Source: an uncultured Clostridiaceae bacterium (GTDB lineage Bacteria; Bacillota; Clostridia; TANB77; CAG-465). Taken from it: DNA of 64,000 nucleotides. The notes below the pieces were generated by a model, which was given only the letters and a program-made list of their open reading frames with translations, was not told the origin of the DNA and searched no databases. The stretch's first letter is position 1; every line of letters starts with the position of its first letter. Both the position numbers and the translations under genes were made by a program. Below are positions 36,543-54,259 of this stretch, in pieces. The DNA lies in the NCBI GenBank assembly GCA_947381905.1, contig CANCXL010000003.1, positions 4,138 through 68,137 on the forward strand, written 5' to 3'.

Positions 36543-36568
36543 TAATTGAGTAATAGGAGGAATGTTAA

Positions 36569-37276
36569 ATGCAAGTAATAGGAATGTATGGATATGTAGA
36601 TAAATATGATTTTGTTATTGCAACTGCAAGAACACTAAATATAATGAGCAAATCGGTTCTTGTAATAGATGCAACATCAGATCAAAAATATAGATATATT
36701 ATTCCATCAATAGATAAGAGTGAAAAGTATGTAAATCAATATGGCGAAATAGATTTTGCTATTGGCTTTGAATCATATACTTCACTAGACGAATATTTAA
36801 AAGAAAAAAATATAGATATAAATTTATATAGTTATGTCTTAATAGATATAGAAAATGCGGATATGTATAGAAAATTTAAAGATGCACCAGTAAGTAAAGC
36901 ATATATGTATATAGATACAAATGTCTTATCTGTTGCTAAAAATGAAGAATTAGTTCGTGCAATGAGAGATGATAATCCTGAAAAAGAATTAGTTTTTTCT
37001 AAAATATTATATAGAGCATATTTATCTCGTGCTGCGACAACATATCTTGAAGATAAAATTGCAAATTATGCTGTAAAATGGACAGACGAAGTATATGATA
37101 TAAGTACAGACGAGCAAGACATGATGGTAAATATTGATTCTCAATTTAGTGGACTTATAGATATTAGAAAACACACTAAAACATACATAATGTATATGTG
37201 TGAATACATATCTAAACTTTTAGGAGATGAAGATCCTAAAACTATATTAAAAGAGATTAAAAGGAGGAAGAATTAA
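36569..37276 (+). CDS. ParA/MinD-fold-like protein lacking a Walker A box (candidate degenerate TadZ/CpaE paralogue)
   Basis: The beta1-loop-helix-beta2 layout is VIGMYGYVDKYDFVIATARTLNIMSKSVLVIDAT, with GYVDKYD where GxxGxGK[ST] is expected. A Walker-B-like YVLIDIEN is present. Confidence 0.4.
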   Translation: MQVIGMYGYVDKYDFVIATARTLNIMSKSVLVIDATSDQKYRYIIPSIDKSEKYVNQYGEIDFAIGFESYTSLDEYLKEKNIDINLYSYVLIDIENADMYRKFKDAPVSKAYMYIDTNVLSVAKNEELVRAMRDDNPEKELVFSKILYRAYLSRAATTYLEDKIANYAVKWTDEVYDISTDEQDMMVNIDSQFSGLIDIRKHTKTYIMYMCEYISKLLGDEDPKTILKEIKRRKN

Positions 37277-38088
37277 TGGCAAAAATTGTATTTTGGAGTC
37301 CTGAAGAAGGTGTATCTGGATGTACACATACTGCTATTGCTGTAAGTTCTCTTATGGGAATAACTCATAAAACATCTTCGCTTTTAATTGATGCAAATTC
37401 TAATGCAAGAAAAATAGCATCTTCTTTTACATATTATGATGATTTAGTAAATGCAAATAGTTTTAATGATAGTAATATGGGAATGAATGCAATAATGCGT
37501 CTTATAAAAAGTAATAAGCTTTCACCAGATATTATTCAAAACTATTCTAAACCAGTTTTAAAAGGAAGATTAGATATTTTATATAGTGCAATTGCAAATA
37601 CAACTACTGAAGCAAGGGAAAATTTACTAAGTATGCCTTTAATTGCAAAAAATGCAGATGAGCTATATGATTTAGTTTTTATAGATTTACCTAAAACAAC
37701 AAGTGATGATATAGCTTTAAAGGTTATGGAACAGGCAGACGTAATAATTTGTGTAATTCCACAAGAAATAGAAAAGTTAACAAAGACTTTAAAGAAAATT
37801 AATTCAATAGATGAATTAAAGAATAAAACAAAAATATATGTTTTAGGAGATTATGAATCAGGTTCTAAGTATAATATCTTTAATGTAAAACTTAAATTTA
37901 AAATACCAGAACCATGTTACGTACTTCCACATAACTATGTTTTTGCAGATGCTTGTAATGATGGAAATGTACTAGATTTTCTATACAAGAATATAAATGC
38001 TCCGGCAAAGGACTATAATGGAGACTTTATGCTAAGAGCGACAGAGATTGTTGAGGAGCTTGTAAAAACACTAAAAATAAAAGAGTAA
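37276..38088 (+). CDS. TadZ/CpaE-like ParA/MinD-fold protein with a deviant Walker A lacking lysine
   Basis: Contains KIVFWSPEEGVSGCTHTAIAVSSLMGITHKTSSLLIDAN and a Walker-B-like DLVFIDLP. Its start overlaps the previous stop (TAATG). Confidence 0.5.
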   Translation: MAKIVFWSPEEGVSGCTHTAIAVSSLMGITHKTSSLLIDANSNARKIASSFTYYDDLVNANSFNDSNMGMNAIMRLIKSNKLSPDIIQNYSKPVLKGRLDILYSAIANTTTEARENLLSMPLIAKNADELYDLVFIDLPKTTSDDIALKVMEQADVIICVIPQEIEKLTKTLKKINSIDELKNKTKIYVLGDYESGSKYNIFNVKLKFKIPEPCYVLPHNYVFADACNDGNVLDFLYKNINAPAKDYNGDFMLRATEIVEELVKTLKIKE

Positions 38089-38101
38089 GAGGGGTGATAT
38101 A

Positions 38102-39997
38102 ATGTCAGTTGCATTTGTATTTAATATTTTATTAATACTACTTTTACTAGCATTTATTGCAGCTTTCTTCTATTATAAGGTAAAAAAATCTGGTGTAGAT
38201 CAGATGGTAGAGGATAGCTTATCAAGAGAAAAGATTACATATAGTCTTTCTACAATGCAAGAATATGTTAAAAAGCAATTTGATGAAATAACAAGAATGA
38301 ACTTATATGATTTGGCATTATCTGAAGAAGAATTTGAAAGAAGAAAAAATGTTAAATACGAACTTAAAAGAGCATTAAAAGGTGCTGGATATGCAGATTC
38401 TAACGATAAAAAATATGTTAAATCGTTAATGTTTGATTTATTAAAAAATGATTATAAAGTTAATAACTTTAACATTAATCATGCAATACCTTTTAATAAC
38501 TTTAATGAATTAAAAGCACAAGATAAATTTGAAATATTAATGCACATATATAAGAAGACATACAAAGCAGAAGCTTTAACTAAAATAATAACTAAATATG
38601 CATTAGATTATCCTAAATACGAGTTTGATGCAACAGTACCTTCTTATGTTATAACAGCAAGGGAGATAGATGATATATTTACAAATGAGGTATCTCCTGA
38701 AACTTTATCATTTGAAGACAAGCTTGAAATTGTTGTTCAAAGAATATACCAAGAATATAAAGGATATAGTGTTGTTGATGATATAAGAGATATGAATATT
38801 GATGGTGTATCTGGTGGTGTATCTGGTATTCCACCATCATTTCTTGATCAATTAAGTGACATGGATGATTATTTATCTCAAATGAATGATTATAAAATAC
38901 CAATGTCATATGATTCAGTATGGATATTCTATAAAGGTAAAGCTACATATTTATCATTTTTATCATTTGGTAGTGAAGCTGAACTTAAAAGGGTATGTCA
39001 AAACATATATAAATATAACAATCCAGGACAATTATCTGAGTCTGTAGGTTATAAAATAAATGAAATGAAAGACGGTTCCAGAGTTGTTGTTTTAAGACCA
39101 AACTTCTCTGAATCTTGGGCATTCTTTGTAAGAAAGTTTGCACCACCTACACTTATTTCTCCAGAACAATTACTTGTTCATGAGAATAAAGATAATGTTG
39201 TTGAATTATTAAAATATTTAATAAGAGGAGCAAGGGTAACAGCAATTACCGGTGAGCAGGGTTGTGGTAAAACTACACTTTTGATGGCTATAATGAAATT
39301 TTTATATCCTACAATTACAATTCGTGTACAAGAAACTGCATTTGAATTACACTTAAGAAAAATTTATCCTTATCATAATATATTATCTTTAAGAGAAACA
39401 GATACTATAACTGGACAAGAAGGTCTAGATGTACAAAAGAAAACAGATGGTGGAGTTAACATCTTAGGAGAGGTTGCAACAGACCCAGTCGCTGCATGGA
39501 TGATTCAAATGGCACAGGTTGCATCAAAATTTACTTTGTTTACTCACCATGCTAAAACATTTCCAAACCTAATTACATCACTTAGAAACTCACTTTTAAA
39601 AATTGGAATGTTTAATTCAGAAAATGTTGCTGAGGTACAAGTTGTACAAGTTATAAATTTTGATATACATTTAAAAAGAGCTGTTGATGGTTCAAGATAT
39701 ATAGAGAGAATAACAGAATGTATTCCACTTGAACAAACATATAGCTATAATAATGATTATAGAAAAGTAAAAGATGTTAATCAAAAATTAGATAAATTTA
39801 TGGATAATGCTGTTGAGTATTTCCAACATATGACACAATCACAAAATTATACATATAGAAATATTGTAGAATTTGTTGATGGAAGATATGTATTTAAAAA
39901 TCCAATAAGTGAAGATAACATTAGAGCTATGAGAGATAATATGTCTGCAGAAGACATAAAGGCTTTTGATGATTTCTTAGATATAGCTTGGAGGTGA
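38102..39997 (+). CDS. CpaF/TadA-family (T2SSE/VirB11-like) secretion ATPase with an N-terminal transmembrane anchor
   Basis: Walker A ITGEQGCGKTTLLMAIM, an Asp-box-like ITIRVQETAFELHL, Walker B plus His-box GVNILGEVATDPVAAWMIQMAQVASKFTLFTHHAKT. Residues 4-26 (AFVFNILLILLLLAFIAAFFYY) are strongly hydrophobic. Confidence 0.8.
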   Translation: MSVAFVFNILLILLLLAFIAAFFYYKVKKSGVDQMVEDSLSREKITYSLSTMQEYVKKQFDEITRMNLYDLALSEEEFERRKNVKYELKRALKGAGYADSNDKKYVKSLMFDLLKNDYKVNNFNINHAIPFNNFNELKAQDKFEILMHIYKKTYKAEALTKIITKYALDYPKYEFDATVPSYVITAREIDDIFTNEVSPETLSFEDKLEIVVQRIYQEYKGYSVVDDIRDMNIDGVSGGVSGIPPSFLDQLSDMDDYLSQMNDYKIPMSYDSVWIFYKGKATYLSFLSFGSEAELKRVCQNIYKYNNPGQLSESVGYKINEMKDGSRVVVLRPNFSESWAFFVRKFAPPTLISPEQLLVHENKDNVVELLKYLIRGARVTAITGEQGCGKTTLLMAIMKFLYPTITIRVQETAFELHLRKIYPYHNILSLRETDTITGQEGLDVQKKTDGGVNILGEVATDPVAAWMIQMAQVASKFTLFTHHAKTFPNLITSLRNSLLKIGMFNSENVAEVQVVQVINFDIHLKRAVDGSRYIERITECIPLEQTYSYNNDYRKVKDVNQKLDKFMDNAVEYFQHMTQSQNYTYRNIVEFVDGRYVFKNPISEDNIRAMRDNMSAEDIKAFDDFLDIAWR

Positions 39998-40001
39998 TAA
40001 A

Positions 40002-42056
40002 GTGACTAATATAGCAATTGTATTAATTGTTGTTTCTTTAATAGGCCTCGTAGGATTACTAGTTTACTATACTATATTAAAAAGAAAATATAGTAGTAAT
40101 ACAATTCTACAATCAAAAGATACTTTAGTAATAAAAAACAAAGTTAATTTTAAAGATACTTTTGATAAGTTATATCAAGTAATGTATATGACATTTGTTA
40201 AAATGCCAATTATGAAATACTATGCTAAAAAAATAAGATTAAAGTATGAGATGTCAAATGATTATACTGAATATGAGCTTAGAAGAAACACTGGTAAATT
40301 AATGACACTTACTATAATTGTTATGTTTGTTGCTTTAGCAGTATTTGTAAATATAGTAAACGATTTATATATGACTTTAATTATAATGATTGGATTAATT
40401 ATAGTCGTAGAAAAGGTTACAGATATTACAATTACATCGGTATCAAATAAGATATTAAGACAAATGCCAGAAGCATTTACAATATTAAGACATGCATTCC
40501 ATGAACATGGAATGGTAGATGAGGCTTTAGCTGACACAATAGATGAATTAAGTGAAAAAGAGATAGCACCACAATTAAAAAGAATAAGGGAGGCTATAAT
40601 ATCTGACCAACCAGAAGTTGAACTTGAAAGATATTATGATACTGCTCCAAACAGATTCTTAAAATTATTTGCTGGTATATCATATTTAACTTATGAACTT
40701 GGAGACAGAAAAGTTGAAGATACATCAATTTATCTTAAAAACTTAAATAATATTTTAAATGAAATATATCTTGAAATATTAAAACAAGACAAACTAAAAG
40801 CTACTTTTAGAAGCTTAACTATTATAGCAGTAATTCCGCTTATATTTATTAAACCGATAGAATCTTGGGCTACAGGAAACTTTGCTGCACTATCTAATTT
40901 TTATACAAGTAGTATAGGTTTTGCAATGCAATCTATAATAATTGTATCAATATTTATGTCATACTTGCTATTAAGAGTAGTACGTGAAGATGGTGAAGAA
41001 ATAAAATTTGATAGGGTATCAAAAGTTAAGTGGCAAGAAAAATTATATAAAATAAATGTAGTGAGAATGATAGTAGATGCTTTTAAGACTAAAAAGCATA
41101 CATCAAAGTATAAAAGAGAAGTTAACTTAATAAAAGATACAAATTCATATCTTACAATAGAGTGGCTATATGTAAATAAATTTGCTTATGCGTTTGTTGC
41201 TTTTTGCTTAACAATTCTATTAATATTTAATATGAATATTATAACTAAAAACTCAGCTTATACCAAACTTAGTAATGAATTTTTATCACTTGGAAAATTA
41301 AGTGAAGATGATCAAGAGGCTGCAAAAGAAGTTGCAGATTTTGATTTAACTTATATAGAAAAGTATAAAAATAAAAATGTAACTAAAGAAGAGCTTGCAG
41401 AAAATCTAACAGACACAGCTACAGGAACTGTAGATACAGATGCTGTTGATAGAATATATGATAAAATAACAACAATAAATGGTTCATATATAAAATTTTG
41501 GCATGTTTTAATTGCATTACTTATTGCTCTTATTGCATACTATGTTCCAAATATAATGTTAACTATAAAAAACAATATTAGAAAAATGGACAAGGATAAT
41601 GAGATTATGCAGTTCCAATCTATTATATTAATGCTTATGCATATTGATAGAGTAGATGTTCAAACTATACTTGAGTGGTTATGTAGATTCTCATATGCAT
41701 TTAGAGAACCAATTGCAACATGCTTAAATAACTATGAAGCAGGTGCAGAAAGAGCACTAGAAGAACTAAAAGATTCTGTACCAAATAAAGACTTCCAAAG
41801 AATAATTGATCAATTAGAATCAGCTGTAACAAGAATTCCAGTTAAGGCAGCTTTTGACGAGTTAGAGACTGAAAGAGCCTTTTTCTATGAAAAGAGAAAA
41901 GATGCAAATGAAGCTCTAGTAAAAAGAAAAGCAACAATTGGTCAAGTACTTGGATTTACGCCTATGGTGCTTTTAATTGGTGGATATCTAGTAGCTCCAC
42001 TACTTATTGTAAGTATATTACAAATGCTTAATTACTTTAGCCAGATGGCATTCTAG
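40002..42056 (+). CDS. Polytopic platform protein with two T2SSF-like (TadB/TadC, GspF-like) repeats in one polypeptide (GTG start)
   Basis: There are two cytoplasmic helical segments, each followed by TM helices. The first is PEAFTILRHAFHEHGMVDEALADTIDEL..IAPQLKRIREAI. The second is FQSIILMLMHIDRVDVQTILEWLCRFS..FREPIATCLNNYEAG. Confidence 0.6.
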   Translation: MTNIAIVLIVVSLIGLVGLLVYYTILKRKYSSNTILQSKDTLVIKNKVNFKDTFDKLYQVMYMTFVKMPIMKYYAKKIRLKYEMSNDYTEYELRRNTGKLMTLTIIVMFVALAVFVNIVNDLYMTLIIMIGLIIVVEKVTDITITSVSNKILRQMPEAFTILRHAFHEHGMVDEALADTIDELSEKEIAPQLKRIREAIISDQPEVELERYYDTAPNRFLKLFAGISYLTYELGDRKVEDTSIYLKNLNNILNEIYLEILKQDKLKATFRSLTIIAVIPLIFIKPIESWATGNFAALSNFYTSSIGFAMQSIIIVSIFMSYLLLRVVREDGEEIKFDRVSKVKWQEKLYKINVVRMIVDAFKTKKHTSKYKREVNLIKDTNSYLTIEWLYVNKFAYAFVAFCLTILLIFNMNIITKNSAYTKLSNEFLSLGKLSEDDQEAAKEVADFDLTYIEKYKNKNVTKEELAENLTDTATGTVDTDAVDRIYDKITTINGSYIKFWHVLIALLIALIAYYVPNIMLTIKNNIRKMDKDNEIMQFQSIILMLMHIDRVDVQTILEWLCRFSYAFREPIATCLNNYEAGAERALEELKDSVPNKDFQRIIDQLESAVTRIPVKAAFDELETERAFFYEKRKDANEALVKRKATIGQVLGFTPMVLLIGGYLVAPLLIVSILQMLNYFSQMAF

Positions 42057-42110
42057 TTTAAATCATCTTAAGAGATGTTTTAATATAATTGTGTAAAGGA
42101 GGAATAAAAT

Positions 42111-42602
42111 ATGGATAACGCACAAAAAGCTATAATGATTGGTGTTGGACTTTTTGTAACAATACTTATCATAGCAGCTGTAATGCTAATTGTTAACCCA
42201 GCAATTAATTTAATAGACAATGCAGCAGGTAAAATAGGAAACCTTAGTGAAACATTTACAACTATGCTTTATTCAAAATATGATGACAGAACAGTAACTG
42301 GTGCAGAAGTTATTTCATTTGTTCAACAATATGCAGCAGATGAAAATATGATTATTGAGGTAAAACCTAACTCTAGTTCAAATATGTTACAACTTGGAAA
42401 AGCAAGAGGTAATGAGTCTTTAATTATAGATAAAGGACTAAAATATGATGATACTAATAAACAAACTAAAGTTAGTGCATTAACAGATAGCTCAAATCCA
42501 GAAACTTATGTACCATCTTCTGCTAGATACGAAGCAAAATTAATAAAAAGTTCATCAGGAGATACTGTAGTAGGAGTACAATTTGTAAGAACAAACAAAT
42601 AA
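42111..42602 (+). CDS. Pilin-like protein 1 (candidate major filament subunit, 163 aa)
   Basis: MDNAQKA-IMIGVGLFVTILIIAAVMLIV has a short polar leader followed by a hydrophobic helix of about 22 aa. It has the best SD sequence of the set (AAAGGAGG), is the first gene after the platform gene, and is followed by a 12-bp hairpin. Confidence 0.55.
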   Translation: MDNAQKAIMIGVGLFVTILIIAAVMLIVNPAINLIDNAAGKIGNLSETFTTMLYSKYDDRTVTGAEVISFVQQYAADENMIIEVKPNSSSNMLQLGKARGNESLIIDKGLKYDDTNKQTKVSALTDSSNPETYVPSSARYEAKLIKSSSGDTVVGVQFVRTNK

Positions 42603-42616
42603 TATTATATTAATTT

Positions 42617-42648
42617 CAAGGTATATAATTTTCTGGTTATATACCTTG
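42617..42648 (+). terminator. Perfect 12-bp stem-loop after the first pilin-like gene (candidate partial terminator or mRNA stabiliser)
   Basis: CAAGGTATATAA-8 nt-TTATATACCTTG. The downstream U-tract is weak (AATATTATT). Confidence 0.4.
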
Positions 42649-42736
42649 AATATTATTAAACAGTAGATATATTTTAAAGAATATATATAATACATTTTTT
42701 AAAATGTGTCTATATAGAAGGGGGGGAAGAGTAGTA

Positions 42737-43201
42737 ATGGAAGAAAACATTTCAAGAGCAATAATGATTGGAGTAACCACTCTTGTTGGAATTATGACAA
42801 TATCTGCAATTATAGTGTTCTTTAACTCAAGTTTGAGAGTAGTAGAAAACGCAAGTGGCTCAAAAGATTTTTCAACAGTTTATCGAAATGATATAGAATC
42901 TACTCTTCTTATGAGCAATTCTGGTAATTATATAAAAGGAACAAGTGTAATAAATTTAATTAGTTATTATGAACAAGATTTTAATGTAAGCATCAGTATA
43001 GCAAATATTAAGTATATAGATAAATCAGGAAATGTACAGATAATAGATAATATTGTAATTAATACAAATGATGTAAATATTAGAAAAGCAGCATATAATC
43101 TGGCTGTGCGATATATAATGGATAACCAAGACTTTACAATTTCTGTAAAAGATAATGATGAAGATATGGGTTCTAAAGAAATAACAATAAGGGGAATTTA
43201 G
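42737..43201 (+). CDS. Pilin-like protein 2 (154 aa)
   Basis: MEENISRA-IMIGVTTLVGIMTISAIIVFF. It shares an internal motif, IKGTSVINLISYY, with the other three paralogues. ATG 42737 follows GAAGGGGGGG. Confidence 0.5.
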   Translation: MEENISRAIMIGVTTLVGIMTISAIIVFFNSSLRVVENASGSKDFSTVYRNDIESTLLMSNSGNYIKGTSVINLISYYEQDFNVSISIANIKYIDKSGNVQIIDNIVINTNDVNIRKAAYNLAVRYIMDNQDFTISVKDNDEDMGSKEITIRGI

Positions 43202-43203
43202 AT

Positions 43204-44754
43204 ATGGATGGAGCATTACAAAAAATAGTATCTATAATTATTGCTGTAGTTATTTTATTTATTCTACCTATATATATAGCATATGAAAAAAGAGATGATA
43301 TTTCATATGCACTTGCACTAAAAATAACAACAGATTTTGTGGATAATGTTAATTCAAAAGGCTATATAACATCAGAAATGTATACAGATTATATCACTAA
43401 ACTTGCAGTAACTCAAAATAGCTACGATGTATATCTTGAGCATACTGCAAAAAAATATAATCCAGTGATATACTCATATACTGATGACTTAAAAACAATT
43501 AGAGCTAAATTTGATTATAATTTATATAAGGATGAATTTGGGGATGGACAAATAACTGTGTCTGATGGATCTAATGCAGGAACATATAACAACTTAATTC
43601 TTGCATATGATTTATCCGAAAAAAAATATAATGAAGAACAGATTTTAAGTGTTATCAGTTCTACAGATAGAAGTCTTTCAATTAATATGAATTTAGAGGC
43701 ATATAAAAATATGGATTATAGATCACTTCCAGCAATTGTAAGTATATACATGCCAGAAAAATCTGCGGGTGTATATACTATGAATGAGGGAGACGAATTT
43801 AGTGTAATTGTAAAAAATAAAAATACTACAATGGCAAGTGTAATATATAATGTTATTACATTTGGAGCATCTGCTAAAAATAATACAAAAATATATGTAA
43901 ATTATGGTGGTACAGTAAAAGCAGAACAATATCGAACAAAAGAAACAATTGATGAAACACCAGTTCCACCTTCAACAGGTGTAGAGCAAGAAAGTTCTCT
44001 TCTTGCATCCTACAATACAAATGGACTAGTTATGCTTCTTGAAGGAGAATATAACGATGGTTCAGTTCATTCAAATGATACTAATATATGGAAAGACTAT
44101 AGTGCAAATAATCATAATGCATTATTATCTGATTTTGATTTTAAAGATGAGTCAGGGTGGAGACATAACGGACTTCACTTTACAGGAAGAGAATATGCAT
44201 CAATTGCAGATATTGCTACTGGGGACATGACAATAGAGATTGTTGCAAGATTTGATAGTGTGTCAAATCCCGAAACTCCTGAACAATCTGTTTTAAGTAA
44301 TTTAAATGATGGAGGGATGGGACTTGTTCTTAACGAACTAAATTCTACATCGATTACTAAAAGAGGAAAGTTCTCTTTTGAGGTATATACACAAGATGGA
44401 AGTATATCTTCTGTGGTGGCAGATGAGATAGTACAAGCAAATAAGATTTACTCAATATCTGGTTCTGTAGGAAAAATGAATCTTGAATATGATGGTAATA
44501 GATTTGCATATGAAACAAGAGCACAACTTTTATCTGTAAATGGAAAAGTAGATGGTATACCATTTAACAGCACTGTAAAGCTACCTTTATCTGGATCAGA
44601 CTTTATTATTGGAGGAAATCCACTAATAGGTGTTGGAGCTCAAACAAGTTTTAATGGAACTATTTATTGTGTGAGAATATATAATAGAGCATTAACTGAA
44701 GAAGAAATAAAAGAAAATTATAAAGTAGATCAAAAGAAATATGGAATAGAATAG
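43204..44754 (+). CDS. Pseudopilin/TadE-like N-terminus fused to a C-terminal LamG (concanavalin-A-like lectin) domain; candidate adhesin subunit
   Basis: The N-terminus is IVSIIIAVVILFILPIYIAYEKRDD. The C-terminal 240 aa or so match the LamG_3 pattern (W.DYSANNHNALL.., GLHFTG.EYASI, FNGTIYCVRIYNRALTEEEIKENY). Confidence 0.65.
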   Translation: MDGALQKIVSIIIAVVILFILPIYIAYEKRDDISYALALKITTDFVDNVNSKGYITSEMYTDYITKLAVTQNSYDVYLEHTAKKYNPVIYSYTDDLKTIRAKFDYNLYKDEFGDGQITVSDGSNAGTYNNLILAYDLSEKKYNEEQILSVISSTDRSLSINMNLEAYKNMDYRSLPAIVSIYMPEKSAGVYTMNEGDEFSVIVKNKNTTMASVIYNVITFGASAKNNTKIYVNYGGTVKAEQYRTKETIDETPVPPSTGVEQESSLLASYNTNGLVMLLEGEYNDGSVHSNDTNIWKDYSANNHNALLSDFDFKDESGWRHNGLHFTGREYASIADIATGDMTIEIVARFDSVSNPETPEQSVLSNLNDGGMGLVLNELNSTSITKRGKFSFEVYTQDGSISSVVADEIVQANKIYSISGSVGKMNLEYDGNRFAYETRAQLLSVNGKVDGIPFNSTVKLPLSGSDFIIGGNPLIGVGAQTSFNGTIYCVRIYNRALTEEEIKENYKVDQKKYGIE

Positions 44755-44766
44755 GAGGAATTGTAT

Positions 44767-45171
44767 TTGGGAGATTCGTTAAATAGAGCAATTATGATTG
44801 GCGTAGGACTATTTATTACAGTTATTATCATATCTGGAATTATGTTTATATTTTCCCAAATGCAAGAAATATATAAGCATGTAGATGATACAGATACTTC
44901 GATAACATCAAAGTTTGGAAAGTATGCATCTTTTGATAATACAACAATAACTGGTCTTGATATGATTAATTGTGCAAATAAATATTATAAAGATAATGAA
45001 GTTATAGTAATGTATGGAAATATACAGCTAAATACACAAGAAGGAATAAATTATTTAAACAATGAATATGAAAATGGAAATATAAAGTATGAATATTCAT
45101 ATTCTTCTACTATTGATGAGGTAGAAGTAGATGGAATATATAAAACACAAATAAGTTTAACAAGAAAATAA
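44767..45171 (+). CDS. Pilin-like protein 3 (134 aa, TTG start)
   Basis: (M)GDSLNRA-IMIGVGLFITVIIISGIMFIF. TTG 44767 lies 8 nt after AGGAGG. TTG 44761 is too close to the SD sequence. Confidence 0.5.
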   Translation: MGDSLNRAIMIGVGLFITVIIISGIMFIFSQMQEIYKHVDDTDTSITSKFGKYASFDNTTITGLDMINCANKYYKDNEVIVMYGNIQLNTQEGINYLNNEYENGNIKYEYSYSSTIDEVEVDGIYKTQISLTRK

Positions 45172-45193
45172 AAAAGAAAGAGGTGATGATAAT

Positions 45194-45658
45194 ATGGAAA
45201 ATGCAAACGAAGCAATATATTTAGGTGTATATACAATGATATTTGTAATAGCCTTGTCTCTTACTATTTTTCTATTTTCATCACTAATGACATATACAGA
45301 AGATGCATACGAATATATGCATAAAGCTACAACTGATTCTGTTAATATATCTGGAGATGAGAATAGGCATTTAATATTAAATGGTCAAGAAGTTTTATCA
45401 TATTATTATAACTATATAAAAAAAGATAATTATTCAGATAAGAGCTACGATTCAAATACAGTAGTTACAATAAATTTAAATACAAAAAATGAAACGCCGT
45501 TAATGCTTGAAAAAGATAATGTTTCATATAAAGATTTGCTAAATAAAATTGGAATGCAAAATAAATATATTTTAACTGTTGGAAGCAATACAACAGAAAA
45601 TATAACATATATTAATATAATTAAGGCTACAGAAGAGGAGCTACAAGAGAAAATATAA
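45194..45658 (+). CDS. Pilin-like protein 4 (154 aa, most divergent)
   Basis: MENANEA-IYLGVYTMIFVIALSLTIFLF, with the internal motif ILNGQEVLSYYYNY. Confidence 0.45.
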   Translation: MENANEAIYLGVYTMIFVIALSLTIFLFSSLMTYTEDAYEYMHKATTDSVNISGDENRHLILNGQEVLSYYYNYIKKDNYSDKSYDSNTVVTINLNTKNETPLMLEKDNVSYKDLLNKIGMQNKYILTVGSNTTENITYINIIKATEEELQEKI

Positions 45659-45670
45659 AAGGAGGAAAAA

Positions 45671-46687
45671 ATGAAAGATACATTAAGTATGATTGTTGCA
45701 GTTATTTTTATTGTTGTTCTTTTAGTACTTCTTCCTTTATATAACTACTTTGAACGACAAGATGATATGTCATATAATTTGACATTAAAAACCGTTACAA
45801 TGTTTGTAGATGAAGTTGCACAAAACGGATATATTGATCAAAATATGTATGATAAATTTATTGCAAGACTTGCTACTACTGGAAATACTTATGACATTCA
45901 AATTGAGGCTAAAAAGAAGATACTTACTATGGATCCTGAAAACATAGATCCAGATACAGGTGAAGAGACTTATATAGAACAATTTAAGTCATATTATAAT
46001 AAAGATATATTTAATGATGAAACTGGAAAAACAAGTAATATTATTTCAAAAGATAATAGTTTAAAAAACAATGTTTTTTTCTTAGATGTTGGAGATAAAT
46101 TTTTTGTTACAGTAAAAAATACAAATACAACAATGGCATCAGCGCTTCTTGGAGCTTTGGTATCAAGCATAACAAAGGAAAAAGTAAATATAACATATGG
46201 TTCAACTATAAAAAATAATAACTGGGAGAATGCAGATATTAGTCAGTTATTTCAAAGTGATATTTTGGTATCTATTTCATTAGAAAATCCTAACGATCCA
46301 GAAGATAAAAACGGATATCCAGAATATAATTTTGAAAATGCAACTGATAGAAGTATTAGTTTTATAGTAAAAGTTTTAAATGCTGACTCGTCAGAAAATT
46401 TATCACAAAAAATAAAAGATAATATAAGACTTGTAGGAACAAATCCAAATTGTTATCTTAACCCATCATCAATAGAAGGAGATTCAGGTAGTAACAATGA
46501 ATTTAAAATAAAATTTACTTTAGACGATACAAAACAAAGTAGATATTTTTCAGATAATGAATATAATGTTTTTCAATGTTTCTTGCCTGCAAATATAATA
46601 CAAGGAACATTTAGTAAAAATTCGAGTGCTAGTTCACAGAAAGTATTATATAAAATAAATAGTGGAATAGAGGTACCAGAACTATAA
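45671..46687 (+). CDS. Paralogue of the 43204 product without the LamG domain (pseudopilin/TadE-like N-terminus)
   Basis: About 50 percent identity by eye over the first 80 aa or so (LLPLYNYFERQDDMSYNLTLKTVTMFVDEVAQNGYIDQNMYDKFIARLATTGNTYD versus ILPIYIAYEKRDDISYALALKITTDFVDNVNSKGYITSEMYTDYITKLAVTQNSYD). The two also share the block VKN.NTTMAS. Confidence 0.55.
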   Translation: MKDTLSMIVAVIFIVVLLVLLPLYNYFERQDDMSYNLTLKTVTMFVDEVAQNGYIDQNMYDKFIARLATTGNTYDIQIEAKKKILTMDPENIDPDTGEETYIEQFKSYYNKDIFNDETGKTSNIISKDNSLKNNVFFLDVGDKFFVTVKNTNTTMASALLGALVSSITKEKVNITYGSTIKNNNWENADISQLFQSDILVSISLENPNDPEDKNGYPEYNFENATDRSISFIVKVLNADSSENLSQKIKDNIRLVGTNPNCYLNPSSIEGDSGSNNEFKIKFTLDDTKQSRYFSDNEYNVFQCFLPANIIQGTFSKNSSASSQKVLYKINSGIEVPEL

Positions 46688-46699
46688 GGAGGTGAAAGG

Positions 46700-47878
46700 A
46701 TGAAGATAACAGACTTTGCATTAGTGTTTATTGCAATAATAATACCATTTATGCTTGTGTTATATATAAATATAACATTTACAATTAAAGCAGAAGAAAT
46801 GGAATTATATTATCAAACAGTGTTAAATTCTGCTTTAGATGATGCAGCATATGAAATGAAACAAGTTGAAAGCCAAGACAAACAAATAGATTATGGATAT
46901 TCAGATAAATTAAATAAAAAGATAAATGTTAATGCACAAGTAGGGGTGGATTCTTTCTTTGAGACATTATACAATACGTTTGGTGTTAAAGGAAATGAAG
47001 CAGGAGAAAGTTATCTTAATCTTTTTGTACCAGCTGTAGCAGTAATAGAATATGATGGCGTTAGGGTATCTAAAAACGAAACTGTTACAGGAGAGGATGG
47101 CCTAAGCATAACACAAAGAGTGTTGAAACCTAAAAGATACTTTACATATACATATTCAATAGTAAGAAATGGTGGAGAATATAGCTATGTTCAAGGAATA
47201 GCAAGTGATAATGTTTCATCTGTACACACAATTGAATTTACAATGGATAGTTTTGTTACTCATAGAGGATATGATTATGCAAGTAATGAAGAGATTGATG
47301 TAGAATCTTTTTATCTTGAAGATTCTAAAAATAATAAAAATTTAGTTATTGGAGTATATGATACAGAGTCAAAAAATAAATTGATGAATGAAATAATATC
47401 ATCCTTAAAAGATATTAGACCATCAATAATATCAAATGTTGTTGCAAGCGAACTTTCTTATGCGGTAAATGAAAACAACTATTATGCAAGACAATCAGGA
47501 GTTATATATTCATTTAATTTTCCTGCAACCACACAAGATGAATTATATAATATGGTTGATGGTGTAGGTATAGTTGCATTTATGCAAGGAATATCTGTTG
47601 GAAATAAATATTTAAATACTAAAGCTTTTGGAGTAAGTTCACTTGGAAATACAACAAGATATTATTTTACTGCTCCAATCACAGATTCACAAATTCAGAT
47701 GAATCTATATCATAAAGATACTAATTGTCCAGAGTATAGATTGTCTAGGATATCAGACATGTCACCAAGATATGCTACATCTAAACAAGAAGCAGCAACA
47801 AGTGAAACTACAGGAACACAAAGTGGAGTGAAAAAGACATTTAGAGGATTTTATCCATGTCCAATTTGTAATCCATAA
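46700..47878 (+). CDS. N-terminally anchored extracytoplasmic protein with a C-terminal Cys cluster
   Basis: The anchor is FALVFIAIIIPFMLVLYINITF. The C-terminus has NCPEY...FRGFYPCPICNP. Confidence 0.45.
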   Translation: MKITDFALVFIAIIIPFMLVLYINITFTIKAEEMELYYQTVLNSALDDAAYEMKQVESQDKQIDYGYSDKLNKKINVNAQVGVDSFFETLYNTFGVKGNEAGESYLNLFVPAVAVIEYDGVRVSKNETVTGEDGLSITQRVLKPKRYFTYTYSIVRNGGEYSYVQGIASDNVSSVHTIEFTMDSFVTHRGYDYASNEEIDVESFYLEDSKNNKNLVIGVYDTESKNKLMNEIISSLKDIRPSIISNVVASELSYAVNENNYYARQSGVIYSFNFPATTQDELYNMVDGVGIVAFMQGISVGNKYLNTKAFGVSSLGNTTRYYFTAPITDSQIQMNLYHKDTNCPEYRLSRISDMSPRYATSKQEAATSETTGTQSGVKKTFRGFYPCPICNP

Positions 47879-47916
47879 AGTTTTAAGATATAATAAAAAA
47901 GGAGGTGTAATCTAAA

Positions 47917-49239
47917 ATGGGAGAAGGTTTTGTTCCATCTTATCAAGATGAAGAAGAAAGACTTAAAGTAAGAAAAGAGAAAGACAGAAAAGATAGAATA
48001 AAAAGTATAATTATATCAGTTATAGCAAGTATAGTAGCACTTGGTATTATATTTTTAGGTTACACAATATTTAATGTAGATTATAGTAAATACGAAAAGT
48101 ACGAAGAAAAAATGGATATATATGGCTTTTCAAAAGTTTATGACAATCAAAAAGCAAATACTAAAGAAAAAGTTACAAAATCTGAAGCAGTTAAAATGAT
48201 ATTATCTTGTTTATATAATGTATCAAGCATTGATGGAATTGCAATGCCAACAGAAGAGACATATTCTAATGCTATATGGGTTGAATATGCAATAAAACAA
48301 GGAATAGTATCTAGAGAAGAGATAAATGCATCAAATGCAAATGATAAGGTAAAATATCAAGAAGTATTAGTATGGCTATATAATATAAAAGCAAAGGTGT
48401 TAAACATTGAGCCAGATACTACTGCAAACTTTAATATAAAAGATATCAATGCATATAATGCAGATCAAAAATTTGCTATATATGATTTATTAAATTCACA
48501 AGTAATTGTAGAAAATTTCAAAAGAGTTGATGGAAATAGAAGACTATATAAAGGAAAACTTAATGAACTAATAGTAAATTTTGCTGAGGAATATAATACT
48601 ATTACAGTTGGAAATGCTAAAATAAATATTAATGAAGATAAAATACCAGAAAACTCTAATATGTATCCATACACTTTAGCAAGTGTTCAAAAAGATGTAT
48701 ATGAAATCCCATTTAAAAATAATGGAAATGAAGGAGTAATTTATCCTATAGACTATTATAAAGATAATAAAGAATACTATGGACAAATTAAAACTTATGT
48801 AGAAAACTATTATAATACACTTTTAAATATAGATTATAATAGCATAAAAGCAGGAGATTTTAAAAGAAAAATAAAAAAATATGTTTACGACGAAATAGAT
48901 GACAACAAGCTTTCTTCATATATTGAATATGTAAAAAATAATCATATTAAAATGAGTGGAAAAGCAGCAGCACAACTACCATGTGTATATTTTGACGGAG
49001 AAAATTATAGAGTAAGAGTAAAGCTTGAGATAAAAATAGAATCATCTGATACAAAAGATAATTTAATATATCATGATTTAGAATCAGGCAAAACATCGTA
49101 TAATAGTGATTTAATCACTATATGTGTTGATACTATAATGCAAAAGACTGATTCGTCAGAAACTTTATTTATAAAAGAAGGAACTATAAATTCTATTATT
49201 TCAAAAACTAGTAGTAGTATAGTTAGTAAGGAGGATTAA
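47917..49239 (+). CDS. Bitopic membrane protein (charged cytoplasmic N-terminus, one TM helix, and an outside domain of about 390 aa)
   Basis: Contains EEERLKVRKEKDRKDRIKS, then IIISVIASIVALGIIFLGYTIF. A faint SLH-like pattern (VTKSEAVKMILSCL..NAIWVEYAIKQGIVS) is present but unverified. Confidence 0.45.
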   Translation: MGEGFVPSYQDEEERLKVRKEKDRKDRIKSIIISVIASIVALGIIFLGYTIFNVDYSKYEKYEEKMDIYGFSKVYDNQKANTKEKVTKSEAVKMILSCLYNVSSIDGIAMPTEETYSNAIWVEYAIKQGIVSREEINASNANDKVKYQEVLVWLYNIKAKVLNIEPDTTANFNIKDINAYNADQKFAIYDLLNSQVIVENFKRVDGNRRLYKGKLNELIVNFAEEYNTITVGNAKININEDKIPENSNMYPYTLASVQKDVYEIPFKNNGNEGVIYPIDYYKDNKEYYGQIKTYVENYYNTLLNIDYNSIKAGDFKRKIKKYVYDEIDDNKLSSYIEYVKNNHIKMSGKAAAQLPCVYFDGENYRVRVKLEIKIESSDTKDNLIYHDLESGKTSYNSDLITICVDTIMQKTDSSETLFIKEGTINSIISKTSSSIVSKED

Positions 49240-49240
49240 T

Positions 49241-52006
49241 ATGAACAGAAAAGTATTATTAATTCTCATGACTATAATAGTAACAATTTTATTGTCTGGT
49301 AATGTATATGCCTATGATAATGGAAGAGAAGTATTTGTAAGACATATAGATAAAGAATCAGGTCAAATAATTGATGGACTACAGAATTCAAATCAAGAGG
49401 TAGTAGATATAAGTGGTAATAGTTCGCTAGTATCAAATAGCACAGCAGATGATGCAAGTATTTCATATAGTGAATATTATAATTATAATGTATCTGATAC
49501 AATGAAAATTACAAAAACTCTTGTAATGCAAGTGGATGGAAAAAAATATGAATATTTAGGATATAATAAATGTACATCACCAGATTTATATACTGCATAT
49601 GATATACAAGAGCAAAAGAAAGCGTTAGTAAGAGCAGGTACTGCGTCATTAGATCAGCCATATGATAGAAATCAGGCTAATACAACATATCAAACAATAT
49701 CATCAAATAATAATGATGTAACTATAATAGATTTTTATTATTCAAAAAAGGATGCAGATAATATTAAACCACAGCTTTATTGTAATACAAGTGTATGGAC
49801 TGGAAATGAATCCGGAATAAGATCTAATGTAACATATATACCGGCAGGAGAAATGCTTAGACCATATTTTGAAACACCACGTTATTTTGTAAAAGATTTA
49901 TCATATGAAAAAACAATTGAAGGTGGTAAAGTAAAATATAAATTAAATAAGTTTGTGGTATATAGGATAGAAGAAGCATATCTTAAATCGTCAGAAAGTA
50001 AGCATATAGGAGATAGTGGTCAGATAGAGATTACAGGTGAACTTGTTGGGGATGGTCCAGCAAGTGCAATAGAAGGAATAAATAATAAATCTACTATATT
50101 AGTGCAAAATAAGGCACAACTTACAGATGAGTTAAATTATTTAGTAAATAATTTTAACAATAAAGAAAATAATAAATTTCCTGGAAGAAATGAAATAGAT
50201 CAAAGCAACGGAGATGATTCTAGTTCAAAGGATTTTGATGCCGACCTTGTAGTAAAAGCAAGAACATATAATGGATTAAGAAGCGCTAAAGGAAATGTTG
50301 TATATAGAGAATATAACGTTTTAGATGGAAATTATGGTGCAAGTATAGAGTATGAATCTAAAAATGATCACTTTATAAATGTATATACACCAGTTTTCTT
50401 AGAAAAGCCACAAATAACTACATCAAGTAATACATCAATAGATCATACATCTTTAAATTCTTCAACAGTAATTCTTGCAGATGATGCAACTTTTGAAATA
50501 AAGCTTTCTTGTAAAGATGCAGATTTTATGTATTATAATAATATTAGTCCAGAAAGAAAAGCAAGATTTGTAAGTTATTATTATCTTATCTTTGATTTTG
50601 ACGTTATACACAATGGTGTGCAATATGAAAAAGGTACAGTAATACAAATGACAAATCAAGCATTATATAATGCTGATGGTGCAACATACTTTCATGGACA
50701 AGTAGCACCAAATGAGACTTTATCAAGAGATAATTCAGAACATAAGATTATAGTATTTGCATCAGCAGATAACATGAGAGATAATGCGCTATTAAATTAT
50801 GTTGCAGATCAAGAGGTTGCTATTCAAATAAAGAAAGAGAAAGATCCTTCTGAAAGAAAATATCTAGATGATAGTGGTAACAATAAATCTAATTTCTTAA
50901 CAGATATTGAACACTCAAAGAATAATACAGATGCACAGTATACTGGCTGGGCGACTCTATATGGAGATGGATATTATTTTGCTATGGACTCTGTTACTGT
51001 AAGAACTGTATCTAAACTTTATGATTTTAAGATAACAGATTGTACAGATTTAGCATTTAAAAGTGCATTTAGAGATTCTAATACAAATGAACTTCAAGGA
51101 ATAAATTATTATTCTGGAATAAGAAGGTTATTTGTATATACTAATGCAAATAAAGAGGTAACAACATTATTTGATAGAAATAATATAAAAATTCCGGGAA
51201 CGTCAGCAACTACAACATTGCCACTTGGACCATATAAGCACTTATCTTCAACATATATTAGTGCACCAAAGCTTGGCTATAGAATCGCCTTTGACGTTAA
51301 AACAACAGGATATTATGAGCCTACTGGAAATGATTCTTCAAGCAGAAAAATAGGCATAAAACCAACATATTACTATGTATCAAAAGATGGATCTACAATT
51401 GAAAAAGATATAACACTATATTATAAGGATCAATCCGGAAAATATAAAAAATTTGTTGGTAGCGACTATTCGATATATTTTAAACCAAATGATGGATATA
51501 GATATAAGAGCAATAGTTCAACTGCAGATACATCATATTTATCAAGTAAAGAGGAAGAGCTAAAGATTGGAAAAGAAGAGTTCTTTTTAACAGATAATAT
51601 GGTTACACTAGATGATAGTGGATATATACAGTCGTGGTATGGTGAATTTAAACTTCCAAACACAACAGTTGCTGTAAAAAATGGGGATAATGTGGATAAA
51701 CATCTAAAAGATGGATACATAGGAGTAAAATTTGAGATAATATGCTATGATCAAAAACTAGGTCAAAACATATACTATGATTCAGAAAACAAAGCTGCTA
51801 GTCCAAAGACAAATACAACACAATGGGATTATGAAGGATATTTAGGCTTTTCAAACCCAGGACAGAGTGTAAATGAAAATTCAAGTTTAAGAATACAACT
51901 AGAAAAAGGAATATGGTCAATTAGCAATCAATCATTATATGATTTTGTTAAAGGAACTGTATTACTATATGATATTGATGCAAGGGCAGCAGATGATATT
52001 AATTAA
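49241..52006 (+). CDS. Large secreted protein (921 aa) with a Sec signal peptide; possible adhesin
   Basis: The signal peptide is MNRKVLLILMTIIVTILLSGNVYA-YD. The N-terminal region has a MucBP-like strand pattern (EVFVRHIDKESGQII..YEYLGYN..VTIIDFYYSKK). There is no LPXTG sorting signal or C-terminal anchor. Confidence 0.5.
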   Translation: MNRKVLLILMTIIVTILLSGNVYAYDNGREVFVRHIDKESGQIIDGLQNSNQEVVDISGNSSLVSNSTADDASISYSEYYNYNVSDTMKITKTLVMQVDGKKYEYLGYNKCTSPDLYTAYDIQEQKKALVRAGTASLDQPYDRNQANTTYQTISSNNNDVTIIDFYYSKKDADNIKPQLYCNTSVWTGNESGIRSNVTYIPAGEMLRPYFETPRYFVKDLSYEKTIEGGKVKYKLNKFVVYRIEEAYLKSSESKHIGDSGQIEITGELVGDGPASAIEGINNKSTILVQNKAQLTDELNYLVNNFNNKENNKFPGRNEIDQSNGDDSSSKDFDADLVVKARTYNGLRSAKGNVVYREYNVLDGNYGASIEYESKNDHFINVYTPVFLEKPQITTSSNTSIDHTSLNSSTVILADDATFEIKLSCKDADFMYYNNISPERKARFVSYYYLIFDFDVIHNGVQYEKGTVIQMTNQALYNADGATYFHGQVAPNETLSRDNSEHKIIVFASADNMRDNALLNYVADQEVAIQIKKEKDPSERKYLDDSGNNKSNFLTDIEHSKNNTDAQYTGWATLYGDGYYFAMDSVTVRTVSKLYDFKITDCTDLAFKSAFRDSNTNELQGINYYSGIRRLFVYTNANKEVTTLFDRNNIKIPGTSATTTLPLGPYKHLSSTYISAPKLGYRIAFDVKTTGYYEPTGNDSSSRKIGIKPTYYYVSKDGSTIEKDITLYYKDQSGKYKKFVGSDYSIYFKPNDGYRYKSNSSTADTSYLSSKEEELKIGKEEFFLTDNMVTLDDSGYIQSWYGEFKLPNTTVAVKNGDNVDKHLKDGYIGVKFEIICYDQKLGQNIYYDSENKAASPKTNTTQWDYEGYLGFSNPGQSVNENSSLRIQLEKGIWSISNQSLYDFVKGTVLLYDIDARAADDIN

Positions 52007-52102: not shown

Positions 52103-53110
52103 GTGATATTTATCTTGAAACTAAGGCTTGTTTTTTTGTATATAGTTTCAGCTATATTATTGATTGGTATTATTGTACTAGCTGTTACAGATAAGAAAGA
52201 AGAAATTAAAGAGGAGAAAATTGAAGAAGAAAAAATAAATTTTGAATCAGATAGTACAATTAATCTTCTAAGAACTAAAACGGGTCAAATAGAGGCAGTG
52301 GATTTGAATTACTACTTGTTATGTGTTGTCGCATCAGAAATGCCATTTAAATATGAATATGAAGCTCTAAAGGCACAAGTAGTTGTGGCAAGGACATATC
52401 TGTTTAATAAAATGAGCAAAAATGGCGAAGAAAATGCAGATGCTTGTGATAGTTATACTCATTGTCAAGCTTTTAACGATTTAGAAAATTTAAAGGAGAT
52501 ATGGAAAAAAAAAGGATTTACAGATAATGAAATAATAGATGGAGAAAATAAAATTAAAAAGGCAATAGTTGAAAGTAGTGGAGAAGTAATTACATATAAT
52601 AATGAATTAATTGATGCAGTATTTCATGCAAGTAGTCCGATTAAGACGGAAAACGCTAGTGCAATATGGTCAGGTAAAGATATTCCATATTTAAAATCTG
52701 TTGATAATATTGAAGATGAAACTTATGAAAGACGAAACACTACAAATGAAATATCGTATGCTACATTTAAGAATACTTTAATAGATAAAGGATATGTTTT
52801 TGATTTATCTAAAGAGGATTTTGCAAATATTAAAATAAACGAGTATACGGAAAGTGGAAGAGTAAAAAATGTAAGTGTTGGTAGTAATTTAATTAAAGCA
52901 GAAGATCTAAGAACAATGTTTAGTATTAACTCAACGAATTTTACAATAACAAATTATGAAGATAAAATTGCATTTAATGTGTTGGGTTTTGGACATGGTG
53001 TTGGACTGAGCCAAGTGGGAGCTAATGAATATGCAAGACAAGGTAAGAGTTATAAAGAGATAATTCATCATTACTATACAGATGTAGATATAGTAAATAT
53101 TGACAATTAA
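52103..53110 (+). CDS. spoIID: Stage II sporulation protein D (lytic transglycosylase)
   Basis: An N-terminal anchor, with YLLCVVASEMP..EALKAQVVVARTY and GHGVGLSQVGA. Confidence 0.85.
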   Translation: MIFILKLRLVFLYIVSAILLIGIIVLAVTDKKEEIKEEKIEEEKINFESDSTINLLRTKTGQIEAVDLNYYLLCVVASEMPFKYEYEALKAQVVVARTYLFNKMSKNGEENADACDSYTHCQAFNDLENLKEIWKKKGFTDNEIIDGENKIKKAIVESSGEVITYNNELIDAVFHASSPIKTENASAIWSGKDIPYLKSVDNIEDETYERRNTTNEISYATFKNTLIDKGYVFDLSKEDFANIKINEYTESGRVKNVSVGSNLIKAEDLRTMFSINSTNFTITNYEDKIAFNVLGFGHGVGLSQVGANEYARQGKSYKEIIHHYYTDVDIVNIDN

Positions 53111-53130
53111 CAAAAGAAAAGAGGGGGATT

Positions 53131-53949: not shown

Positions 53950-53959
53950 GAGGTAATAT

Positions 53960-54208
53960 ATGGATGAAATAGAAAAAAGAGCAAAGATGTTTGCTACTTA
54001 TATTATTGAAACGGGAGCAACAGTAAGAACAACAGCCAAAGTTTTTGATATTTCAAAATCTACTGTACATAAAGATGTCGCTGAAAGACTAGAAAAATTT
54101 AATCCATCGCTTGCAGAACAAGTAAAGAAGGTATTAGAGCAAAATAAATTAGAGAGGCATTTAAGAGGAGGTATGGCTACTAAATTAAAATACAGTAAGA
54201 TAAGTTAA
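53960..54208 (+). CDS. spoIIID: Stage III sporulation transcription regulator SpoIIID
   Basis: An 82-aa protein with YIIETGATVRTTAKVFDISKSTVHKDVAERL (helix-turn-helix). Confidence 0.9.
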   Translation: MDEIEKRAKMFATYIIETGATVRTTAKVFDISKSTVHKDVAERLEKFNPSLAEQVKKVLEQNKLERHLRGGMATKLKYSKIS

Positions 54209-54230
54209 TAAATAACTTTGTAAAATTAGG

Positions 54231-54259
54231 TTGCAAAAGGAGGTTAAATGTAATATAAT
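54231..54259 (+). promoter_or_regulatory. sigmaA-type promoter of mreB (TTGCAA-17 nt-TATAAT)
   Basis: Hexamers at 54231-54236 and 54254-54259. The TTG that the ORF track uses as a start is the -35 element. Confidence 0.5.

Follow-up and report, generated by a model that had tools for sequence, protein, structure and literature searches.

We analysed a 64,000-nucleotide stretch of DNA, hereafter the window, from an uncultured Clostridiaceae bacterium of the gut order TANB77 (contig CANCXL010000003.1 of assembly GCA_947381905.1, positions 4,138 to 68,137), with a focus on an operon for a putative Tad-like pilus and on two large subunit-like proteins encoded in it, Q1 and Q2. The window has a GC content of about 28%, derives from a Firmicute chromosome with PolC, MreB and SpoIID encoded downstream of the operon, and is itself present as sequence in mouse-gut metagenomes. 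The operon (35511-52006) is tightly packed and lies with all of its genes on the plus strand; its spacing and ribosome-binding sites are consistent with a single transcription unit. In its central part, the gene order given in a preliminary description of this DNA was confirmed: pilin-like gene 2 (pil2) is followed by Q1 (43204-44754, 516 amino acids (aa)), pil3, pil4 and Q2 (45671-46687, 338 aa). The place of pil2 in this order stood, but its start did not, as the ribosome-binding site puts it at 42737 rather than at 42704. We found that Q1 and Q2 share a conserved N-terminal stalk and that both carry C-terminal cargo domains, which differ among related species and which, in the Q1 of this genome, belong to the LamG/concanavalin A (ConA)-like superfamily.

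Q1 consists of three parts. The N-terminal module (43204-43944, residues 1-247), the conserved stalk, comprises a 51-residue N-terminal helix and a beta-rich head, and is followed by a disordered linker rich in Pro, Thr and Glu (43945-44013, approximately residues 248-270, sequence ETIDETPVPPSTGVEQE) and by a C-terminal LamG/ConA-like jelly-roll domain (44014-44754, residues 271-516). An AlphaFold2 model built from 50 homologs (mean predicted local distance difference test (pLDDT) 80.8, predicted template modelling score (pTM) 0.68) shows a helix at residues 2-52, strands and the beta-rich head up to about residue 237, a linker with pLDDT below 50 at residues 248-264, and a beta-sandwich at residues 275-495, where pLDDT is mostly 83-96. 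The hydrophobic segment covers residues 8-26, and the invariant residues of the stalk are P22, Y24, E28, D31, D32 and Y35.

The assignment of the Q1 C-terminus to LamG, made in the preliminary description from the letters alone, is borne out by profile and structure searches. PF13385 matches residues 336-503 with E = 2.6e-10 and 41.1 bits, passing the gathering threshold of 27.6, and the match runs to the end of the profile at the motif FNGTIYCVRIYNRAL, which had been quoted as typical of the family; the proposed start of the domain near 44014 (residue 271) also agrees with the model. When compared with the PDB using Foldseek, the predicted two-sheet jelly roll matched the Hc-N domains of botulinum and tetanus neurotoxins (BoNT/TeNT) and the lectin domain of the T. 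cruzi trans-sialidase with probability 1.00 and E of about 2e-9. Identity to solved members is only 12-17%, and no solved sequence relative was found. We also considered a glucanase and rejected it: PF13385 is a non-catalytic family, and no GH16-type ExDxxE motif could be read by eye in the Q1 C-terminus.

Q2 begins, after a strong ribosome-binding site, with an N-terminal module (45671-46234, residues 1-188), and ends with a C-terminal domain (46235-46687, approximately residues 189-338). That Q1 and Q2 are paralogues over their first 80 residues or so, with a second stretch of similarity further on, had been noted previously; pairwise BLASTP supports both blocks, the first (residues 1-83, 83 aa) at 46% identity with E = 5e-15 and the second (55 aa, around GDEF/GDKF...KNxNTTMAS) at 36% with E = 6e-7. 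The paralogy in fact covers the entire N-terminal module, because hhalign comparison of the two ortholog alignments pairs Q1 1-246 with Q2 1-188 (probability 100%, E = 4e-44), the Q1 module being about 58 residues longer. The further claim that Q1 alone is extended could not be upheld. Q2 is not a bare stalk: its residues from about 190 to 338 form a domain of 150 aa that is conserved among the Q2 orthologs of the LamG subclade, has no match in Pfam or, using the Q2 profile, in the PDB, and is swapped for other domains in other species.

To place this pair in its evolutionary context, we relied on 76 related loci obtained from a scan of one genome per species, with flanks of up to 10 kb on each side. 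These loci come from gut metagenome-assembled genomes, including Clostridium sp. CAG:465, CAG:1219 and CAG:921. BLAST synteny revealed one order in almost all of them, namely, PBP5, CpaB, two ParA-like proteins, CpaF, TadBC and one to three copies of pil1, followed by pil2, Q1, pil3, pil4, Q2, R392, S440 and T921. Both Q slots are found together and in the same order in nearly all of these species-level genomes, with orthologs down to about 33% identity, and because of this co-occurrence we place the Q1/Q2 duplication before the radiation of the clade and do not regard the two proteins as alternatives to each other. The preliminary description had instead suggested a duplication followed by domain gain, or alternative tips. 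A recent tandem duplication of this kind, with one copy subsequently acquiring LamG, might be suspected from the distance of 0.9 kb between Q1 and Q2, the small pilin-like genes in front of each and the 46% N-terminal identity, but the comparison of genomes contradicts it, and we consider it highly improbable. Besides the shared order, orthologs are closer within a slot than between slots, being separately assigned by BLAST and carrying different N-terminal signatures (MEDxxQ...YIAYEKKDD versus MKDNLS...YNYFERQDD), and Q2 has a variable C-terminal domain as well, with LamG occurring once in the Q2 slot.

In both slots the C-terminal cargo has been exchanged many times, and some members have none. 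Q1 orthologs can be as short as 212 aa or as long as 1497 aa, and those of Q2 span 166-1281 aa, whereas the machine proteins are of fixed size. Among 70 Q1-slot proteins, Pfam identified LamG in 19, dockerin in 12 and an ALK-type Gly-rich domain in 8; the cargo of 60 Q2-slot proteins included Big_13, dockerin, Gly-rich, PKD, Big_3_2 and Flg_new domains in addition to the single LamG. A separate protein search with Q1 yielded 93 relatives, all from uncultured gut Clostridia, about half of which are full-length LamG orthologs (36-99% identity), the others sharing only the first 240 residues or so and ending in ALK/LTK-type Gly-rich domains, type I dockerins (one together with an Ig-like domain) or regions without a Pfam match. 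The LamG cargo evolves faster than the stalk: within the LamG subclade, mean identity is 66% for the stalk and 50% for the cargo, with the linker lowest at 17-35%. The stalk itself is widespread: a search of 1.84 billion representatives with its profile gave 1,236 matching clusters (at 50% identity), and in the 150 matches listed (proteins of 93-1559 aa) it starts at residue 1, bar a few N-terminally truncated fragments. Taken at the level of sequence, these comparisons indicate that the duplication of Q1 and Q2 is ancient, that in both slots it is the cargo that varies, and that the pair is a two-slot display platform rather than the product of a recent duplication with one domain gain.

Type I dockerins on a Q1 or Q2 stalk were observed in loci L025, L032, L035-L040, L044, L045 and L049. 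If a pilus subunit carries a dockerin, a partner with a cohesin would be expected elsewhere; no cohesin, and no Pfam match at all, was detected in the orthologs of T921, the large protein at the end of the operon, from seven dockerin-bearing loci. Two further observations concern the integrity of the Q1 region. In locus L021 (10001-11540), a LamG-type Q1 ortholog is split into two overlapping open reading frames (ORFs) of 224 and 302 aa, which points to a frameshift, either in a pseudogene or through an assembly error. In one metagenome (run X9), two 'skip' joints, 43831-48921 and 45966-48847, each have just 21 letters on one side and are probably assembly-graph artefacts at short shared words rather than deletions.

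The operon as a whole has a published counterpart. Kim et al. (2024, Nat Commun; PMC11680825) described a Tad-like pilus cluster of 10-14 genes, almost exclusive to TANB77 and confined to uncultured gut Clostridia of the CAG-xxx type, in which the machine genes encode CpaB (358 aa, one transmembrane (TM) helix), TadZ (231 aa), CpaE (280 aa), CpaF (640 aa, one TM helix) and a fused TadC/TadB (693 aa, eight TM helices), all similar to Tad components by Foldseek, and are followed by genes for seven 'pilin-like' proteins with a single TM helix. The window operon shows the same succession, with proteins of 343, 235, 270, 631 (with a TM helix) and 684 aa (with at least seven) preceding seven proteins with a single N-terminal TM helix, and from this correspondence we identify it as a member of the published cluster. 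In the same study, the N-terminal quarter of a 621-aa 'minor pilin', protein 938, was found to be TadE/PilV-like by Foldseek, and the recombinant protein activated dendritic cells via TLR4 and improved the anti-PD-1 response in mice (PMC11680825). Judging from gene order and size only, protein 938 is probably a Q2-slot protein and protein 936 (237 aa) probably a bare Q1.

Among the machine genes of the window, the first encodes a CpaB/RcpC-like protein (35511-36542, 343 aa) with one TM helix and a SAF domain, which matches PF08666 (SAF, E = 3.5e-7) and PF13144 and, under the cut-off, TIGR03177 (pilus_cpaB, E = 1.1e-5); it corresponds to protein 927 of Kim et al. (PMC11680825). The second product (36569-37276, 235 aa), of the ParA/MinD class, is called TadZ-like from its position and the literature only: Pfam and NCBIfam searches returned no match, its length is kept at 234-244 aa in 66 loci, and structural homology to TadZ was reported for the 231-aa equivalent (PMC11680825). 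The next protein (37276-38088, 270 aa), the equivalent of protein 929 in that study (PMC11680825), is tentatively CpaE/ParA-like, with matches to NCBIfam CpaE_hom_Actino (E = 0.0027) and to ParA models, all far under the cut-offs, and no match of its profile in the PDB.

A CpaF/TadA-type secretion ATPase (38102-39997, 631 aa), the family expected of a Tad system, is present, though divergent, and carries an N-terminal TM helix and an N-terminal extension of about 270 aa. In the PDB, phmmer matched its residues 274-546 to CpaF (8rkd, E = 5.5e-9), and CpaF was also the sole passing match of its profile (E = 9e-7). The protein has a Walker A motif (GEQGCGKT) and a His box (THHA), diverges from PF00437 (E = 9e-4, under the cut-off) and, at 73-97% identity between species and a mean column identity of 84%, is by far the most conserved product of the operon. 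It is followed by a polytopic membrane protein (40002-42056, 684 aa, at least seven hydrophobic segments), presumed to be the fused TadC/TadB platform; searches of Pfam, NCBIfam and PDB sequences, the last also with a profile, found nothing, and structural homology of its two halves to TadC and TadB was reported by Kim et al. (PMC11680825). As for the wider neighborhood, in many related genomes the operon sits between a D-Ala-D-Ala carboxypeptidase gene (PBP5/DacF-like) and spoIID together with an M23 peptidase gene (SpoIIQ-like). The corresponding flanks in the window are 34121-35338 and 52103-55304, with mreB/mbl after spoIID/M23, so that the surroundings are those of sporulation and cell-wall genes. 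SpoIID was seen in 16 loci and M23 in 13, counts that partly reflect the limited flanks.

Four small pilin-like genes are interspersed with the large ones. We regard pil1 (42111-42602, 163 aa, with a strong ribosome-binding site) as the candidate major pilin gene, as it would present the usual picture of one: the first 28 residues of the protein, MDNAQKAIMIGVGLFITIII, are nearly invariant in 39 orthologs and the remainder is highly variable, there are one to three copies per genome, and a 16-bp hairpin, recognised in a scan for terminator-like sequences and resembling a terminator or attenuator (42615-42650), lies directly 3' of the gene. A promoter-like site (42664-42691) is located between this hairpin and pil2, and the two elements together might control how much major relative to minor subunit is made. 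One run that we guessed to be RNA contained scattered contigs at a depth of about 3, some within Q1 (43782-44534) and none on pil1, and gives no support for the hairpin boosting pil1 RNA.

The other three are pil2 (42737-43201, 154 aa; hhalign with pil1, probability 99%, E = 6e-18), pil3 (44761-45171; with pil1, 99.3%, E = 3e-20) and pil4 (45194-45658; 95.5% with pil2, 94% with pil1). Together with pil1 they form a single family (hhalign 88-99%) whose members share x-[KR]-A-I-x-[IV]-G-V and lack both Gly-1 and the EY pair. Neither a Flp-type pilin with the G/XXXXEY processing motif nor a TadV/CpaA peptidase was found at the locus, and the pil1 profile matched nothing in the PDB.

Downstream of Q2, the third large protein, R392 (46700-47878), has one N-terminal TM helix, begins with MKITDFALIF... 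and is conserved in 71 ORFs across the loci, with no family match. R392 and the small pilins were also considered as distant Q paralogues and rejected (hhalign probabilities of at most 13%); by these alignments, Q, pil and R392 constitute three unrelated classes. The operon ends with S440 (47917-49239), a type II membrane protein whose cytoplasmic head is rich in Lys and whose TM helix lies at residues 30-48, and T921 (49241-52006), a large secreted protein with a signal-peptide-like N-terminus. S440 is present in one to three copies per locus and shows a weak match to the SAG1386/EF1546 surface-protein family (E = 6e-4); T921 orthologs vary from about 890 to 2335 aa, and the eight members tested had no Pfam match. 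Neither protein is counted in the 12-gene cluster of Kim et al. (PMC11680825).

We propose, with a probability of roughly 60%, that Q1 is a bimodular, low-abundance subunit of the CpaF-driven Tad-like pilus of TANB77, that Q2 is its ancient paralogue, and that the stalks of both display exchangeable cargo, which in Q1 would be of the lectin type. Q1 would accordingly be laid out as a leaderless stalk of about 247 aa, a linker of about 20 residues and a LamG/ConA-like cargo of about 245 aa. The N-terminal helices would be pulled out of the membrane by the CpaF-like ATPase, itself membrane-anchored, together with the fused TadC/TadB platform, and pil1 would be polymerised as the major subunit. 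Q1 and Q2, probably along with R392 and pil2-4, would enter as minor subunits, initiating the fibre or capping it. The two Q stalks would then present their different cargo domains at the distal end of the fibre, outside the cell wall, and the LamG domain of Q1 in this mouse-gut species would most likely bind a glycan or another surface ligand, be it on mucus, on diet particles or on another microbe. With the stalks kept and the cargoes swapped across the order, such an arrangement could be described as 'plug-and-display', with each species choosing what its pilus sticks to.

The Q stalk has the outline of a pilin, with about 20 hydrophobic N-terminal residues, an alpha-1 helix of about 50 residues (helix 2-52 of the model) and a beta head. 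Several observations, however, weigh against the role that we propose for Q1 and Q2. Q1 starts with MDGALQK and Q2 with MKDTLSM, each followed by the hydrophobic helix, and there is no leader with a Gly/Ala-1 cleavage motif. Neither protein matches PF07963 (N_methyl) or PF07811 (TadE) in Pfam at E of 1 or below. Up to residue 27 the Q family has no conserved Glu, and hence no Glu5; its conserved acidic residues are E/D2-D3 and E28. A profile of Q residues 1-62 found no pilin among all PDB sequences (best E = 0.65), and Foldseek found no significant neighbour of the stalk model in the PDB (best E = 0.12, TM-score of at most 0.16). The likeness to TadE/TadF pseudopilins that the preliminary description saw in the N-termini thus gained no support from any of these searches. 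Moreover, the GxGD-x-K/R signature of A24 prepilin peptidases is absent from the window and from the 76 loci (ORFs of at least 80 aa), although such a gene could be located outside these regions. The organisms are uncultured and no filament has been observed to date, and any sign of expression is confined to the low-depth fragments from the single run guessed to be RNA. Finally, the closest structures to the LamG domain include protein- and ganglioside-binding toxin domains, and the fold is no proof of sugar binding.

The unusual N-termini are common to the whole set: all seven putative subunits begin with 5-8 mostly acidic residues, without Gly-1 or Glu5. In the Q stalk, L21-P22-x-Y24-x-x-Y27 stands in what we take to be the same register as ALPAYQDY of mature type IVa pilins, a lead to which no statistic is attached; such a register would fit a protein made without a leader. 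More tentatively still, we raise the possibility that Q1 and Q2 represent an extensive and so far unannotated family of pilin-like stalks made without a leader (1,236 clusters or more), with no detectable relation to known type IV pilins in sequence or head fold, assembled by a very divergent CpaF system that may be peptidase-free, and forming a two-slot plug-and-display tip with cargo exchanged between species. In this full form, we hold the proposal to be speculative and on balance doubtful.

The missing pilin signatures fit the main rival explanation, under which Q1 and Q2 are never polymerised but remain bitopic (N-in, C-out) in the cytoplasmic membrane, whether as parts of the assembly apparatus like PilN/PilO or GspL/M, or as ordinary surface proteins that are anchored there and expressed together with the pilus. 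Their C-terminal domains would bind the cell wall or nearby ligands. An N-terminal TM helix, an amphipathic helix and an alpha/beta domain also describe PilN/PilO-type proteins; no prepilin motif, Glu5 or peptidase would be called for, nor any match to a pilin of the PDB in sequence or fold; and the invariant juxtamembrane P22-x-Y24...E28-K-x-D31-D32 would suit a fixed contact with the platform. The size variation and the cargo modules fit this explanation poorly. Assembly parts are normally of constant size, as the ATPase, the platform and the ParA-like proteins are here, whereas Q1 and Q2 span about 170-1500 aa and carry modules that typically face outward and bind (dockerin, Ig-like/PKD, LamG). 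In addition, a linker of 20 residues would be too short to carry a 250-aa domain from the membrane past a Gram-positive wall, and the N-terminus of a large protein of the cluster is TadE/PilV-like according to Kim et al. (PMC11680825). Overall, we think it unlikely that the Q proteins remain in the membrane, and favor their incorporation into the fibre as minor subunits.

A different question is what the LamG domain does once displayed. It might not be a lectin adhesin at all but might bind a protein, such as T921, S440 or a host receptor, or act as a structural spacer, in a pilus that serves secretion, aggregation or immune stimulation. Proteins are as common as sugars among the ligands of PF13385 and ConA-like folds, the best Foldseek matches of Q1 are Hc-N domains of toxins, which do not themselves serve in sugar binding, and the same slot is occupied in other species by dockerin, a protein-protein module, or by the ALK-type Gly-rich domain, a binder of protein ligands; a protein of the cluster, moreover, signals through TLR4 on dendritic cells (PMC11680825). 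That signalling was seen with protein expressed in E. coli, and the slot of the protein is only inferred. The T921 orthologs of seven dockerin-bearing loci offer no cohesin or other partner domain, and both the PilC precedent and the annotation of pilins with PF13385 favor carbohydrate binding (PMC9934059, PMC8179133). Hence a role other than that of a lectin seems to us rather unlikely for Q1, if somewhat less so than retention in the membrane, and we retain lectin-type cargo as the preferred reading.

The precedent in question is PilC of S. sanguinis, a pilin whose ConA-like lectin domain binds sialylated host glycans and which a model places in a tip complex alongside another modular pilin and a small pilin (PMC9934059); more generally, the 15 extra modules most often seen on pilins include PF13385 (PMC8179133). 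The likeness of Q1 and Q2 to PilB and PilC extends to the paired modular pilins of the tip complex, the lectin on one of them and the monoderm host (PMC9934059, PMC8179133). By analogy with PilC, a tip-adhesin role of Q1 is plausible, and a pilus-borne adhesin is a reasonable reading of a true LamG domain encoded in one operon with a CpaF-type ATPase and four pilin-like genes. The differences are nonetheless considerable. PilB and PilC are made with a canonical class III signal peptide and belong to a type IVa machine with PilB/PilT-type ATPases and the PilD peptidase, whereas Q1 and Q2, which are mutually paralogous, lack a leader and Glu5, belong to a Tad-like machine of the CpaF type and possess a stalk fold without a solved relative. 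Set against the definition of modular pilins (Raynaud et al. 2021), Q1 has the extra domain and the linker but not the IPR012902/N_methyl motif.

Similar considerations apply to the TadE/F/G proteins and to the tips of the Myxococcus Tad pilus, KilL/M/N, which carry variable distal domains (PMC12075869). Like Q1 and Q2, these proteins are encoded downstream of the Tad machinery and include a large minor pilin with a variable C-terminal domain predicted to lie at the far end of the fibre, where the variable domains would tune what the pilus touches. Unlike Q1 and Q2, they have prepilin cleavage sites and match PF07811. Furthermore, Myxococcus has four separate paralogous tip clusters as alternatives, whereas the Q genes co-occur in one operon.

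The TANB77 operon and the principle of modular pilins, including a pilin with a grafted lectin, are already known. Kim et al. (PMC11680825) treat the pilin-like proteins as 'conserved' and make no mention of Q1/Q2 paralogy, of LamG/lectin, dockerin or Gly-rich cargo, of the size range of the slots, or of prepilin processing and the missing prepilin motif or peptidase. The paralogous stalk pair with exchangeable cargo, the leaderless stalk family and the consequence for the claim of a conserved pilin appear to be new.

This consequence is that two 'pilins' of the TANB77 cluster are paralogous display stalks whose outer domains differ by species, which changes the meaning of 'conserved pilin'. 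If protein 938 is indeed a Q2-slot member, only its first 190 residues or so would be conserved in the order, and about three quarters of it would be species-specific cargo. A CpaF-type motor working with subunits that lack a canonical leader, Glu5 and a nearby peptidase would provide a useful test of the rules of type IV filament assembly, and Q1(271-516) and the C-terminal domain of Q2 are concrete reagents. For the organisms themselves, the target of adhesion in each species is probably determined by the cargo domains of the Q proteins.

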